From Chthoniobacteraceae bacterium (lineage in GTDB: Bacteria; Verrucomicrobiota; Verrucomicrobiia; Chthoniobacterales; Chthoniobacteraceae), in contig JANNWY010000275.1 in assembly GCA_031409335.1 (NCBI GenBank), positions 1-21,236 of the forward strand: a stretch of DNA of 21,236 nucleotides, given 5' to 3'. Position numbers: made by a program. How positions within the stretch are numbered: the first letter of the stretch is position 1; every line of letters starts with the position of its first letter. This document shows, piece after piece, positions 1 through 21,000 of this stretch.

Positions 1-3000
1 AGCGACGGCTGCGCCGACGGACACCGACAGCCCTGCGCCACCCAACGCCGCGCCAATCGAAGCGGCACCGGCCCCCGCGGCAATACTCGACGAATCCTCG
101 GCAGAGATTTTGATCGTGTCCGCCGAGACGCCAGTAGCGCCGTCGCCGTCGATGTAGGCCTTCACGTCCGTCGCAATGCGGTTCTCGGCGTAAACTCCCG
201 CGCCACTGGCCGCGAGGCCGATGCCGCCGCCAGCCACCGCCGCGGAAATCGCCAGCACCAGCGCATGGACGGACTGCTCGCCCGTCGCAGTGAAGCTCAG
301 ATCGCCGCCAGCGTTGATGCTGGTGTCTTCGGAATAAGCATGCACGTCCACCGGCGCGTCCGTGCTGCCGATGCGATTGCGCGCGATGGCCACGCCGATC
401 GAGGCACCGAGGCCGCCACCACCCACAGCCACACTGGCCGAGGCCGAGACGATCTTGGCATCGATGGCGGAGGTGTTATTGGCGGTGAACGTCACCGCGG
501 TCGCGGCATCCAGCGAGCTGTCCACCGCATAGGCCTTCGCACCGCCCAAGATCGTGTTCTCGGCGAGAGCACCCGCGCCACTGATGGCGATGCCCACGCC
601 GCCACCGCCCACCGCCAGCGAGACCGCGACCGACAACGCGTCGATCGACGCGTCCTCGATCGCCGTCACGGTGATCGCGCCGGTCGTAGCCGTCACGTCG
701 GCATCGGCGATGAACGCATCCACACTGCTGTCCACCGTATTACTGGCCAGCGATACGCCGATCGATATCCCAGCGCCCGCGATGCCGAAACCCGCGGCCA
801 CCGAGGCGGCGGCCACGTCGGCGTGGATGTGGGAAAGGTCTTGCGCGCGCAGGGTCACGCTGGTGGCCCTGATGACGGAGTCCACCGTGTCGTTGCCGTC
901 GATGTAAGCCATCACGTCCGTCGTGATGCGGTTGTCAGCCGCAGCGCCCGCGCCGCTCGCCGCGATGCCGAGGTAGAGACCTCCGGCCACGGCCACTGAG
1001 CCGGAGAAGACGAGAGCGTCGATGGACTGGTCGCCCTTGGCCGTTACCGAAAGAGCACCGCCGGCATTGACCGGAGTGTTTTCGATATAGGCCAGCACCG
1101 CGAGCGGCGCGCTGACTACATTGACCAGCTTCCACGCATCGGGGTTGGCGAAGTCCTGATCAATCGCGGTGATTTTGCGCCAGAGCGTTTCGTCGGTGTA
1201 ATCCACCGTGCTCAGGTTGGTGCTGGCGAGGTTGGCACCGGTGCGTTCGTAAACGCGATTGCCGCCGACGAGCACCCGCTCGCCCTTCTTGACCGCCGTG
1301 GTCTGGCTGCTGGTGAAGTCGTAATCAACCGTGACGGTGTCGCCGAGGTATTCGTAAACGTCGCCCTCGCGCACTCCGCGCTCGACTCGCACCTTGTCGC
1401 CCTTGTGCAGCGTGAGCACGTTGTCGGCGGACTTGTAATCAAACGCCGCGCTTCCGTCGCGGGTCGAACCCACCAAATTACGCGCCAGTGCCACGCCAAT
1501 GGACGCACCAACGCCGGCATCGGCACCCACGCCGACGCCGACCGAAGCCGCGACGATGATCGCATCGATGGACGAAAGATTTTCAGCGCGGACGGTCACC
1601 GCACCAGTCGCAGCAAGGTCGCTGTCGGACGCGTGCGCATCGACACCACCTGTGATGATATTCTCAGCCCACGCTCCCGCGCCGCTGACGGCGATGCCGG
1701 TGGAACCGCCCACACCGACCGCGACCGAGGCCGCGAAGGCTACTGCATCGATGACCGCGACGTCGGTGGCTGTAATCGAGATGATTCCAGCCGTTGCGTC
1801 CACATCGGCATCTTCGATAGAGGCCCGGACATGGCTATCGACGGTATTGCGGGCCAGGCCCACGCCGATGGAGACGGCAACCCCAACCTGACCGAAGGCC
1901 GCGGCGACCGACGCCGCACCAGCAAAGGAGTGGACGAACGAGCCGTCCACCGCATCCAGCGTGACGCTGTCGGCCTCAATCTTGGTAGCGTCCTCGCCGT
2001 CGATGCGGCTGGCCACATCGACGCCTACCCGGTTCTCCGCGAACACACCCGAGCCAGCAGCAGCCACGCCCACGGTGCCGCCGGCAGCCACCGCGACCGA
2101 GCCGGCAAAGACCAACGAATTGATTGTCTGGCCAGCCAGCGAGGTCAATGCAAGCGCGCCATCAGCATGCACTGGTGTATCGATCAACAGGGCCTGAACT
2201 TCCAGCGGTGTCGCGCTGTCGTCGCCGGGTTCCCAGCCGATGAAGTTGCGCGCCACGGCGATCCCGATCGACACGCCCACACCGGCGGTACCACCGCCAC
2301 CGACCGCCAGAGATGCTGCCACGACGGTGGAAAAGATGTCCGACTTGCTGGCCGCGCTGATCAACACGTCTCCCGCGCTATCGATGGTGCTGTTCTGGCC
2401 ATAGGCCGTGGTTTTACCCAGGATGACATTCTGGGCCACGGCCCCCGCGCCGCTGACCGCCACGCCTACGGTGCCGCCGCCTATGCCCACGGCCAGTGAG
2501 GCCGCGGCAGATACCGCATTGATCGAGTTCTTCGAGACGCTCAGTGTTAGCGGAGCACCGTCTGCACTGGTCCGTACCAGCACAAAGCTCTGGCCGTCCG
2601 GTGCCAACAGCGCCCAACTCTGGCCGGCCTCCAGCGTGGATAGCTTGAGCTTGTCGAGCAACAGCCACTTTGTCGTGTCGGTATAGTTTTCGGCTGCGAG
2701 GATGACGTTGTCCCGGTCAACCGTTCCCACATAACGGTAAACACGCCCAGGGATGCCGTTGGAATTGGCACCCGCCTCGACGGTGGTGCCCTCGCGCAGA
2801 TCCTGCGGGTCGGTGTCCGTCGTTTTGAAGGTCGAAGCCGTGGCCACGGTGTCGAAGACGGCTAGAGTTGTGCCTTGCGCGGCGAAGGCGGCGCGCAGCG
2901 CCGCCAGCAGGACTTGGTCGTTCCGCACATCGTTGGTGGCCTCGTTGTTCGCCGTATCGCTGATATCCTGGTCGGCCACCGCGGCATCGTCGAGGTCACT

Positions 3001-18000: not shown

Positions 18001-21000
18001 AAGTATTGCCGCTGCACCTGCACATGCGGTCGCAAAGCCACGCAATGGTCGGCGACCCGGTACCACGATTCGCTAAAGGTCGTCGCTTCACTCATAGCCT
18101 ACCACCAGAAATACATGCGCAGGAAATCCATCGTCCTATGAGTTACCACCCACAATAGACTACGCTTACCCACTTCCAACTTTGCCACCCCGCTCATGCC
18201 CGGTCGCATCCACGGCTGAGGGGGGCCCTCAAAGTCACATCGGGCGATATAGATGTTGGCGTTATCCTTCGCTTGAGCCGCTGGCTCCACGGACCGGATG
18301 TGAACCGGAAAGGTTAGCTTAGGCAGGCTGGCAAACGCGATCTCACCCCGGCCACCTTCCCGGACATCCTCCACGTCACGTTCATTGACCTCGCACTCCA
18401 CATAGACACGATCTGTGCGCGCAATCTTAAAAAGCACATCCCCCTGCTTCACCGGCGCACCGATGCGTTTGCGCAAATCTCCCTCGACCACCGCTCCAAT
18501 GAACGGCGCAAGGAGTGTCGCCTGATTTCGATGAAACCGCAGCAAGTCCAGCTTCACCCGCACCTGTTCCGCTTGCGCCTCCGCGATCCGCATATCCGCG
18601 ATCTTTTCCACGGCCCGCGCCTTTTCAATTTCCCGCAAATACCGCGCTCGATCCGCGACCGCCTCTGCTTCCCGCAATAGTAATTCCCGGGTATCGAGAG
18701 TAGCCAGCACGGCACCCTGTTCCACCCGGTCACCCACTTCCACCTTCACCTCTTCGATATAGCCATCGAAGGGAGCGGACACGAATCCGGCATCCTGCGT
18801 CCGCAGGGAAAAGGGCGCTTCCACACGGTAGTTCCAGTGCCCGAAAATCAGCACTCCCAGTGCAATAGTCGTCAGCACACCCACTAACTTTGCACCCGTA
18901 TGCTCCGGCCCCGCCAGCCACTTCACCCGCTCCCGCGCCACCGTCGCCCAGCGTGCGCCAAACCAGCGATCACTGCGTTTCAGATCCGCCAGACGCCGCA
19001 TCGCCATTTCCCCGCAGAGCGCCAGGAGGCGAAGCTCTACTTCATTAAAAGCATACTTGTCCCGCTCGCAGGTCAGCACCGCGACCGGCTCCCCGTCCAC
19101 CCGCAACGGCAACGAGCACACAAATGCCACCCGGTGCGCCTCGGCCAGCCGGCCATGATCGCGCGTCACCAAACGCTGCCGCTCCGGTTCCGGCCAGACG
19201 ATGATCTCATCCTGATCGAGCGCCTCTTCCATCGCCGCCTCCAGCGTCTTCACCGCCTCCATCTTCTTTTCAAAACGCTCGCTGTGACTCATCGCGCGCA
19301 GCCCGACATATTCATGATCGAGCCATCCCAAACTCACCCGATCACAACGATGCCGCGCCGCCAGTTCATTGCAGAAAGCCATCGCCGCCGCCATGAAACG
19401 CTCGTGCGCATTCACCTGCGTCATCAAGTCCAGCACCGACGCGAAATGCGAGACCGCCGTCTCCGAGCGGGTCGCCTGCATTTGCAGCCGATGAATCGCC
19501 GGCAGATGCGAGAGCAGCCTCAGATGGCGAAGTGATTCCTCCGCAGAAGCCGATGTAACGCCAGTCAGGAGAAACGCCGCGACCCAAGCTTCAGACTGCT
19601 GATCCATGACCAACCGCACGGCCAGAAAAAAATCACCCACCGCCGCCGTGCCCGCCTGAACACCGCGGCAGACCCCACCATGCTGCACCGCCGCTTCCGC
19701 CAAATCGCCAGCCACACGGGCAAAACTCTCAGCCGCTCCCTTGGCGGCGGAATCGGAAGGCCAGCTCATTACCTGCTTCCATCCGGGCGACTCCTTCGGC
19801 CCTTCACACAGCAGCACAGCGAGGCGGGCCTCCACCACGTTCGTCAAGATGGACAAACACGTCTCCCAGAAACTCTTGGGCGATCCCGCCAAGTCAGGCA
19901 AACGTTCAAGGGCAGACAGAGCTTCCGCAAAACGGTCAGGATGGCTGAGTTTGTTCGACATTCGGTGAGGGGAACTGAATCGCGACTGAGGTCTCTCGCG
20001 AGGGAAAAGTGCGAAGCACACCAAAGCAACACCGGATGACGGCGTATTGTCACAGTAAAACCGCCAGACCCACTTTTTCCCTTCACGTTTTCTGAAAGCC
20101 AACTTCATCCCTCTGCACGCCGATGGTAGTCGGAGGCTGAGATTCACTCGCTTCGCCGATCGTGTATAATTGAGTGGTTCAGACCGTCGGGCATCGCAGC
20201 CAGCCCCCATTACCTCATCCGCTCGCCCTCGTGCGTTTTGCGGGTGGAGTTTTCTCTCGTTGAAACGCCGCTTCGCGTCGGCTGAATCTGACACGGGCAG
20301 CCGGCGCGAATCACCAGCGCGCGTTTCGGCGAAGGAGTGGCGGCTGGCTACGGCATCATGGACGACAATTTTTCTTACATCGGCACACAGGAAATCTGGG
20401 GCGGCGAGAAGGCCGTTGGTCTTTCGCATTCCGACCGTCGCCAGCATCTCTACCTCATCGGGAAAACGGGCACGGGAAAAACGACGCTGCTTCGCAACCT
20501 GATCGTCCAGCATCTCGCCGCCGGGCACGGCATCGGGTTGATTGATCCGCACGGGGATCTCGCGGAGGAACTGCTCGACTGCATCCCGCCGCATCGCGCC
20601 GACGATCTCGTCTATTTTCATCCGGGCGATCTCGACTTCCCCATCGGCCTCAATCTCCTCGCCAATGTTGCGCCCGACGACCGGCATCTCGTTGCCAGCG
20701 GGATCGTCGGCGCGTTCAAAAGCATTTGGCGCGACTCGTGGGGCCCGCGCCTCGAATACATCCTCTACAACGCCGTCGCCGCGCTGCTCGATTGCCCGAA
20801 TACTTCCCTGCTCGGCGTGAACCGCATGCTCACCGACGCCGACTATCGCCGCCGCATCGTGGCGAAAGTGCGCGACCCATTCGTGCGCGCTTTCTGGACT
20901 GACGAATTCGAGAACTACGACGCGCGCTTCCAACGCGAAGCCATCGCGCCGATTCAGAACAAGCTCGGCCAGTTCCTGCTCAATCCCGTGGTCCGCAACA

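Follow-up and report, generated by a model that had tools for sequence, protein, structure and literature searches.

The closest described relative of the locus analysed here is the module reported by Kamneva, Poudel & Ward in 2015 (PMC4452313), which combines GAF-HlyD, Peptidase_M50-HlyD, a truncated SecA, HlyD and sometimes OEP, contains no ABC transporter, and for which SecA has already been suggested as the ATPase and M50 as the pore. The parts of that paper considered here, 9 of its 19 supplements included, name no substrate, no signal and no PqqD-like domain; what we add to it are leader-bearing proteins as very probable clients, an RRE fold, clades that lack SecA2 (the truncated SecA paralogue) and an optional DUF3467. 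The module shares HlyD-type adaptors, an OEP duct and large repeat-rich candidate substrates, some with RTX, with type I secretion (HlyB-HlyD-TolC), but it differs in having no ABC transporter, three adaptors, a proposed N-terminal signal and an M50-class protease. PCATs (PMC8277102) likewise have an N-terminal leader cut by a transporter-fused protease; theirs, however, is a C39 cysteine protease with an ABC ATPase, whereas the module has M50 and no ABC, and PCATs with an active protease handle cargo up to ~10 kDa, compared with >1 MDa for the largest candidate cargo here. RiPP processing (lasso B1/B2, EpeP, daptide M50; PMC10885120) also couples an RRE-fold reader to a protease, but here we see a periplasmic-adaptor fusion, large-protein candidate clients and no modifying enzymes.

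Two giants of Chlorobium chlorochromatii, Cag_663 and Cag_665, have been shown by immunolocalisation to be exported (10.64898/2026.03.19.712371). They have the same leader (LEPRxLL) and LktA-like repeats as the giant described below, no known signal, and TolC nearby. The authors attach no signal function to the leader, mention neither M50 nor DUF3467 in the portions of the preprint considered here, and propose SapC/TolC/HlyD, C-terminus first, and autotransport. According to the same preprint, the Chlorobium symbiosis proteins stay in the periplasm when the partner is absent, and C. chlorochromatii appears in the PMC4452313 trees of SecA and module proteins. Omnitrophota giants with SecA-like domains (10.1101/2023.11.21.568195) resemble the present system in that a SecA motor without scaffold and wing is proposed to aid giant export; there, however, SecA is a domain of the giant itself, and M50, HlyD and LEPR are absent from its text. 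No paper joining leader, module and DUF3467 was found in a literature search that left outside it most subscription journals, 10 of the 19 PMC4452313 supplements and the preprint supplements.

We analysed a window of 21,236 nucleotides, contig C275 (JANNWY010000275.1) of a Chthoniobacteraceae bacterium. As in secondary-SecA loci, a truncated SecA_DEAD protein is encoded beside M50-HlyD and GAF-HlyD. The gene order and domains given in the initial annotation for these three genes and the giant were borne out, all on the minus strand:

18099-19961, minus strand: GAF-HlyD gene, a GAF-domain periplasmic adaptor of 620 aa with a cytoplasmic GAF region, a membrane helix at ~356-374 and an HlyD-type adaptor
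15942-18095, minus strand: Peptidase_M50-HlyD gene, a 717-aa three-part membrane protein with a PqqD/RRE-fold domain, an M50 (site-2) zinc protease and a periplasmic adaptor
17781-18059, minus strand: PqqD/RRE-fold domain of the M50 protein, residues ~13-105, model pLDDT 82-92
17157-17468, minus strand: M50 catalytic motifs, HExxH at 210-214 and NPxxxxDG at 306-313
13957-15945, minus strand: truncated SecA paralogue gene, 662 aa, Walker A and DEAD motifs intact
13813-13956, minus strand: intergenic stretch between secA2 and the giant gene, 144 nt, with one terminator-like hairpin at 13924-13939
1-13812, minus strand: 5' part of the giant ORF, 4,604 aa of an 11,309-aa surface-type protein, the rest lying on contig C210
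13666-13812, minus strand: N-terminal leader of the giant, residues 1-49, basic, without a hydrophobic h-region, with the LEPR-XLL motif at its end
13666-13698, minus strand: LEPR-XLL motif of the giant, residues 39-49, the predicted recognition site; cleavage would fall at or just after the motif end

The operon had been described as running straight into the giant gene. The giant is indeed next in order, but a 144-nt gap follows secA2. The one terminator-like hairpin in this gap is at chance level (0.6 +/- 0.9 expected) and speaks neither for nor against co-transcription; the gap contains no sigma-70-type site and no Rfam match, and Rfam families were absent across 84 kb from 5 sources. The join of C275 to C210, with an exact overlap of 115 nt found in these two contigs only, keeps the frame continuous, but the length of 11,256 codons assigned to it does not stand: with its start at ATG 13812 the giant is 11,309 aa long, the smaller figure being counted from the second Met (residue 54), where the earlier gene call opens directly after the LEPR-XLL leader, which is thereby lost. 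A start called after the leader is also seen in RefSeq WP_343211605.1. Position 1 of the window is crossed without a break by contigs from two public runs of one study, one of which may be the source of this DNA; this result concerns contig continuity and does not extend to the letters past that position. On C210, a DUF3467 gene follows the giant as annotated. The cassette is flanked by genes of mobile elements (coupling-protein, ParA, ParB, ArdC), so that co-inheritance adds to adjacency. It has no OEP or short HlyD in the window; the genome encodes both elsewhere, at C236 and C201.

The 5' part of the giant on C275 contains RTX nonapeptide clusters and at least 23 LktA-type repeats, and this tandem repeat makes up most of the first half of the protein. 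RTX nonapeptides number 34 in total, with 18 in the first 2,000 aa and the last one still ~1,600 aa short of the C-terminal end; close to that end, in the part on C210, there is a matrixin-like HExxH domain. The C-termini of 15 neighbouring giants showed no clear common block by eye, with a loose 'IDW'-like word in some, and a type I C-terminal signal offers no testable consensus. The Pfam model Planc_extracel matched nowhere, controls included, and is hence uninformative.

The N-terminal domain model of the M50 protein has the three-strand, three-helix fold of a PqqD-like RRE. It matched the lasso B1-leader complex 6jx3 (Z 9.6, rmsd 3.0, 84 aligned) and PqqD (5sxy, Z 8.8), and also GdmN (Z 9.7); winged helices that bind no leader match equally well. 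The earlier doubt about a weak PqqD-like call (E 0.004) is lifted by this fold comparison, which upholds the call. The protease part is a membrane domain of several helices that contains HExxH and NPxxxxDG (3b4r, E 7e-4; RseP, Z 10.3); the two motifs are invariant in 63/63 cases, and a larger set retains HExxH in 116/116 and the second motif in 114/116. The best NCBIfam match of the protein is the daptide intramembrane metalloprotease NF041824 (E 8e-55, below cut-off), and the HlyD-type domains of the cassette are below the TIGR01843 cut-off. In a tree of M50-adaptors the leader type follows the branches, where kin share labels. An M50-adaptor was also present in 39 plasmid records.

The leader model NF012209 matched the giant near its N-terminus with 27.7 bits (cut-off 17), the sole over-cut-off match in the genome. 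Seventeen other leaders lie below the reach of this model and were recovered by our own profile or pattern, giving 18 leader proteins of 552-11,309 aa in which the leader replaces a signal peptide. By sequence these leaders are basic, ~12-50 residues long and devoid of a Sec signal, and they share the form LExRxxx, which comprises LEPR-XLL and the variants ..RIAPA, ..RLLA and ..RILFDG. The pattern, tuned on the same 18 proteins that it counts, matched 18 times across 10.8 million six-frame residues, each time within the first 110 aa of an ORF >400 aa. A hydrophobic signal stretch was absent from 15 of the 16 leader proteins scored and present in 180 of 217 other large repeat-rich ORFs. Most of the 18 proteins sit far from module genes, and in relatives ..RIAPA proteins directly adjoin modules (L137, L140, L144). 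We rejected RTX repeats or size as the mark of cargo: 13 of the 18 contain no nonapeptide and 9 are <1,000 aa, so the defining feature is the leader. The giant had been put forward as cargo of the module; this is supported, more strongly than was claimed, but its RTX repeats do not mark it as such, and it is the leader that defines clients. Late start calls, together with lineage variants missed by the NCBIfam model, make the link between leader and module easy to overlook.

Several surveys point to this link. Among 80 loci with an M50-adaptor homologue we counted GAF-HlyD in 79, SecA2 in 68, short HlyD in 55, DUF3467 in 39 and OEP in 17, close to the earlier counts of 78, 73, 54, 39 and 14. 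Where these loci contain a large repeat-rich ORF whose start can be seen, the ORF carries the leader in 17 of 19 cases, the other two resembling internal fragments. In unselected samples of 200 Verrucomicrobiota (45 with the machine) and 200 Alphaproteobacteria (16 with it), the leader was found in 40/45 Verrucomicrobiota genomes with an M50-adaptor versus 5/155 without (33/38 after removal of 7 genomes that trained one profile), and in 13/16 versus 5/184 Alphaproteobacteria, those five in ORFs of <=508 aa; because kin are not independent, such tallies overstate the association. No leader was seen in 5/45 and 3/16 module genomes, and two genomes (G057 and G120) have a clear leader ORF and no M50 match. 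Leader protein and module are adjacent in 3/3 complete plasmid loci examined and co-occur even when far apart, as in G065. In Methylosinus sp. C49 a single run of genes encodes a giant, DUF3467, three adaptors, SecA2 and TolC, whereas the locus of Azospirillum brasilense Sp7 contains no SecA2. Methylobacterium- and Mesorhizobium-type loci had been listed as counter-examples, and both fall: 5/5 Methylobacterium/Methylorubrum genomes have a leader ORF of 13,628-15,371 codons lying 0.8-1.7 kb past the 10-kb flank, and in Mesorhizobium the edges of three loci contain the leader. The longest ORFs in these samples reach 20,466 codons. Strains that are harmless and tractable also have the machine. 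We consider it very probable that the leader proteins are clients of the module.

DUF3467 had been proposed as the third member of a three-way link with machine and cargo. The linkage is genuine: where present, DUF3467 lies within 600 nt of the GAF-adaptor ORF in 36/39 loci, usually directly before it, and of 26 loci without a module gene, 20 have a paralogue next to leader proteins. It is not a fixed partner, however, since it occurs in only 1/45 Verrucomicrobiota and 0/16 Alphaproteobacteria module-bearing genomes of the unselected samples, and we rejected it as an obligatory part on these counts. A homologue search with single proteins as queries gave 78 close homologues, for 24 of which the surrounding DNA viewed shows neither module nor leader nor giant, and family matches occur in 3/14 control genomes where the leader model has none.

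SecA2 was likewise rejected as an obligatory part, as it was not found in 8/8 genomes of other clades; 'secondary-SecA module' is thus valid as the name of a subtype but not of the whole class. The alignment of the paralogue to housekeeping SecA stops at residue 752 of the latter's 1,002-codon frame, so that the C-terminal quarter is missing. The paralogue has no membrane helix and is below all SecA2 family cut-offs, and no secY2 or asp genes are annotated in the 3 complete loci viewed. Six SecA-like loci were seen on viral contigs.

The module probably belongs to an envelope-spanning exporter of the TolC type, devoid of an ABC/RND pump, whose clients carry an N-terminal LExRxxx leader. In this proposal, the PqqD/RRE-fold domain would bind the leader motif on the cytoplasmic side, in the way that RREs recognise RiPP leaders, and the fused M50 protease would cut the leader in or at the membrane; that the RRE-M50 protein reads and cuts the leader seems likely. 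The unfolded chain, with its N-terminus leading, would pass through the M50 and GAF adaptors in their membrane part, then through a short third adaptor and the OEP/TolC duct; the cassette has no OEP or short adaptor and would have to borrow these parts from C236 or C201. On one-step passage through TolC we are evenly divided. The truncated SecA may act as an extra ATP-driven feeder for very long chains in this clade, other clades managing without it; in clades without SecA2 we saw no energy source for export. DUF3467 could link client and GAF-adaptor in the cytoplasm as an optional adaptor or chaperone, the weakest step of the scheme. A TolC-dependent secretion system of its own type is a tentative proposal that falls just short of an even prospect: it would have an RRE-site-2-protease-adaptor core, a leader-selected regulon (18 proteins; three paralogous machines with matching leader variants), a RiPP-like cleavable leader and N-terminus-first threading without an ABC pump, with truncated SecA and DUF3467 plugged in where chains are longest (to 20,000 residues). 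Such a route would differ from the export routes known so far. The orphan 2015 module would gain a class of substrates and LEPR-XLL a function. There would also be a testable account of how the longest proteins of bacteria, many of them at least, leave the cell, among them the symbiosis proteins of Chlorobium, for which export is shown but the path is guesswork. If an RRE with a site-2 protease did act as gatekeeper of secretion, it would tie RiPP biology to that field.

The chain might instead travel in two steps, with SecA (housekeeping or paralogue) and SecYEG moving it across the inner membrane, M50 serving as leader peptidase, and adaptors and TolC taking the chain from the periplasm, where the Chlorobium preprint (10.64898/2026.03.19.712371) reports a pool. 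Two steps would account for the missing ABC pump and for the 8/8 other-clade genomes that cope with one SecA. However, SecY gating needs a hydrophobic core in the signal, which the leader does not have, and the C-terminal quarter that the paralogue has lost is the part of SecA containing the two-helix finger. Nor did a secY turn up in the loci profiled, although no search aimed at it was made. We consider this route unlikely. In a further reading, an ABC exporter encoded elsewhere would handle the giant as a normal type I substrate, with the module processing, anchoring or regulating it or just co-travelling on mobile DNA. The 34 nonapeptides would fit, as would the mobile genes around the cassette and the plasmid records, and the genome encodes two HlyB-like ABC proteins below family cut-offs. 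An HlyB-like ABC lies at C281 (540 bits against a cut-off of 725), and at C93 there is a C39-ABC accompanied by an adaptor. Nevertheless, the nonapeptides are not C-terminal and are missing from most leader proteins, leader and module co-occur even at a distance (G065; most of the 18 here), and this genome, 98% complete, has no type I ABC or adaptor above the cut-off of its family, which makes a type I route very unlikely. No ABC transporter is encoded among the cassette genes or in 3 complete annotated loci, and a C39 peptidase fused to an ABC ATPase, the mark of PCAT/AMS, is not in the cassette.

For DUF3467, a role as protein chaperone is possible, at somewhat less than even likelihood, and a role as a PC4/Pur-type single-stranded nucleic-acid-binding protein that aids expression of very long genes is rather unlikely. 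The model has three strands and a helix, and among the fold matches listed, which do not include SecB, the nearest are COMM domains (Z 5.5, the best; rmsd 3.3, 58 aligned) and Pur/PC4 (Z 4.0-4.7); all Z are <8 and may reflect a common arrangement only. An Atlas search returned DUF3467 clusters only, and Foldseek gave no match at E 0.001. In one genome (G006), DUF3467 precedes a giant with a TPS-like domain and there is no module, as nucleic-acid binding would allow, but the usual place directly before the GAF-adaptor suits a protein partner equally.

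The initial annotation had placed a GAF-HlyD gene, a Peptidase_M50-HlyD gene and a SecA paralogue gene ahead of a giant ORF, and we found all four in this order on the minus strand, within a 42-kb cassette that seems to lie inside an integrative element:

18099-19961, minus, GAF-HlyD gene (GAF-adaptor)
15942-18095, minus, Peptidase_M50-HlyD gene (M50-adaptor)
13957-15945, minus, SecA paralogue gene (SecA2)
from ATG 13812, minus, giant ORF, open to window position 1
20337-21236, plus, TrwB/HerA-like coupling ATPase, one flank of the cassette
C210 21288-25987 (L145), HTH, ArdC, ParB and ParA genes, other flank of the cassette

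The proposed continuation onto contig C210 also held, since the ORF end overlaps the C210 start exactly over 115 nt, in frame and uniquely to these contigs, and a DUF3467 gene does follow the giant there. The length of 11,256 aa reported initially counts from the second Met (residue 54); translation from the ATG at 13812 gives 11,309 aa. A matrixin-like HExxH zinc site lies ~145 aa before the C-terminus of the giant (C210 about 19,750-19,850). The genome (7.9 Mb, 98% complete) has three genus-mates with other M50 types only, and for one of its genes the closest relatives bear the label Chthoniobacterales/Spartobacteria.

Residues 39-49 of the giant, overlooked initially, form a LEPR-XLL motif (NF012209, over cut-off). 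A leader pattern combining LEPR-XLL with the variant ..E-x-L-E-x-R-I-A-P-A, tuned beforehand on proteins of this genome, gave 18 matches among all six-frame ORFs, every one within the first 110 residues of an ORF >400 aa. These leader proteins range from 552 to 11,309 aa, and 13 of the 18 have no RTX nonapeptide. Their bodies are diverse (Calx-beta, FG-GAP and cyclophilin among five scanned for families, two of which had no family). A hydrophobic stretch was found in the leader of 1 of 16 scored proteins, versus 180 of 217 other large ORFs rich in repeats. Two leader proteins start with a cyclophilin domain (C57:44638 and C223:16464) and are perhaps exported folding helpers.

The leader goes with the M50-adaptor machine in other genomes. 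Across 80 loci with an M50-adaptor homologue, for which our recount of genes agreed with the initial one, a leader ORF was visible in 25, and 17 of 19 large repeat-rich ORFs with a visible start carried the leader. Ten of the loci are from Methylobacterium/Methylorubrum, and each of the five such genomes that we checked has one leader ORF, of 13,628-15,371 codons, just past the flank; a leader giant adjoins the module in each of three complete plasmid loci chosen from 39 records. Among 200 Verrucomicrobiota genomes drawn blind to the feature, 45 encode the M50-adaptor. Our first leader profile matched 14/14 in the clade closest to the window gene and 1/31 of the remainder, where 20 loci revealed variant leaders (..RILFDG, ..RxLLA) homologous to the first type (profile comparison, probability 96). 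With both profiles, the leader was found in 40/45 genomes with the M50-adaptor (33/38 minus seven profile-training genomes; three of the 40 positives have it only in ORFs of 114-220 codons and one in a 32-codon contig end) versus 5/155 without, two of these five being convincing; in 200 Alphaproteobacteria the figures were 13/16 versus 5/184; kin within the samples are not independent. Leader type tracks the M50 tree (116 sequences). In the small genomes G137 (C1:823500-824500), G098 and G116 the leader heads only proteins of 114-220 codons, two of them in tandem near the module, which are possible small clients. At NZ_CP123586.1 183224-184354 the RefSeq start of the giant falls after the leader, and a SapC gene is divergent to it; SapC likewise adjoins the Chlorobium chlorochromatii giants (10.64898/2026.03.19.712371).

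The model of M50-adaptor residues 1-431 (pLDDT 88) has an N-terminal PqqD/RRE fold followed by a site-2 protease domain. The former matched lasso B1 with leader (Z 9.6), TbiB1 (9.3) and PqqD (8.8); GdmN, not itself an RRE, matched as well (9.7). The protease domain matched RseP (Z 10.3) and 3b4r (E 7e-4). HExxH is present in 116/116 sequences and NPxxxxDG in 114/116, and RefSeq already calls some homologues 'PqqD family'. SecA2 retains its ATPase motifs and ends at a point matching approximately residue 752 of the housekeeping SecA, whose frame has 1,002 codons. Its gene accompanies every M50 gene in 2/2 genomes of the window's clade and is absent from the loci of two other M50 clades (19 and 10 sequences, including this genome's C201 gene, on a contig of only 4.7 kb). 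In 8/8 genomes of those clades, six of them single-contig or nearly so, we found housekeeping SecA and no second SecA. SecA2 is a plug-in of the machine, lacking in some M50 clades. A 638-aa gene at the SecA2 position in NZ_AP022333.1 is annotated 'prepilin peptidase', probably wrongly, and six IMG/VR contigs carry SecA-like genes.

The initial annotation had also tied DUF3467 to the module. This linkage stood: DUF3467 occurs in 39/80 loci, immediately before the GAF-adaptor in 36, and a module gene lies close to 48/78 proteobacterial-type homologues (query locus left out, some loci repeating earlier ones) and to 31/46 of those with at least 3 kb on both sides. Homologues of the C226 copy adjoin leader proteins in 20/26 cases, with no module gene there. 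A fixed partnership was not borne out, as DUF3467 is rare in module genomes of the unselected samples (1/45 Verrucomicrobiota, 0/16 Alphaproteobacteria). It also occurs in control genomes without the leader, and nothing related was in view around 24 of the 78 homologues. DUF3467 is therefore linked to module and leader proteins, yet optional. Its predicted fold (three strands, one helix; pLDDT 87) gave no clear structural match. On contig C29 of G006, a genome with no M50 match, DUF3467 is flanked on one side by an RND efflux operon and on the other by a giant that exceeds 2,600 aa and contains a TPS-like domain.

RiPPs offer precedents both for leader cleavage coupled to an RRE and for M50 proteases that act on leaders (PMC10885120). 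In our preferred scheme, the RRE of the M50-adaptor would recognise the client leader, the protease of the same protein would cleave it and the client would leave by way of the adaptors and TolC; SecA2 and DUF3467 would assist in certain clades only. We consider this scheme reasonably probable. Two-step export, by Sec and then TolC, would fit the periplasmic pool reported for the Chlorobium giants (10.64898/2026.03.19.712371) and appears unlikely to us. We give still less credence to the usual ABC export of clients with a merely co-inherited module: the cassette is flanked by mobile-element genes and the genome has ABC genes, below family cut-offs, but the clients are dispersed through the genome and mostly RTX-free.

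The module was described in PMC4452313, whose accessible sections name no substrate. Export of two LEPRxLL giants has been demonstrated and assigned to other routes (10.64898/2026.03.19.712371), in a Chlorobium species that is in the supplementary trees of PMC4452313. A truncated SecA has been located within giant proteins of Omnitrophota (10.1101/2023.11.21.568195). In its accessible parts, PMC13723633 lists DUF4347 giants of Azospirillum and not this module; PMC5313232 mentions the 2015 paper by citation only. The leader-module link was found in no paper of the literature searched. This locus adds a leader variant that the curated model misses, co-occurrence counts in unselected genomes, SecA2 and DUF3467 as optional parts, and a genome with multiple clients and multiple machines.

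That genome encodes three M50-adaptors (C275, C307, C201), two SecA paralogues, two module-linked OEPs and three DUF3467, one of which immediately precedes two leader proteins on C226. C223, which additionally encodes two leader proteins, probably joins C201 (C201:3-4559) into a third module, because its GAF-adaptor (C223:1-1380, cut by the contig end) is 63% identical to a relative's gene preceding a short adaptor and an M50 gene. C236:17196-21620 (OEP-SecA2-HlyD) and C307:37578-41569 (GAF-M50) look like halves of a single module, and the C307 M50 clusters with those of two loci (L075, L078) that hold all five genes together.
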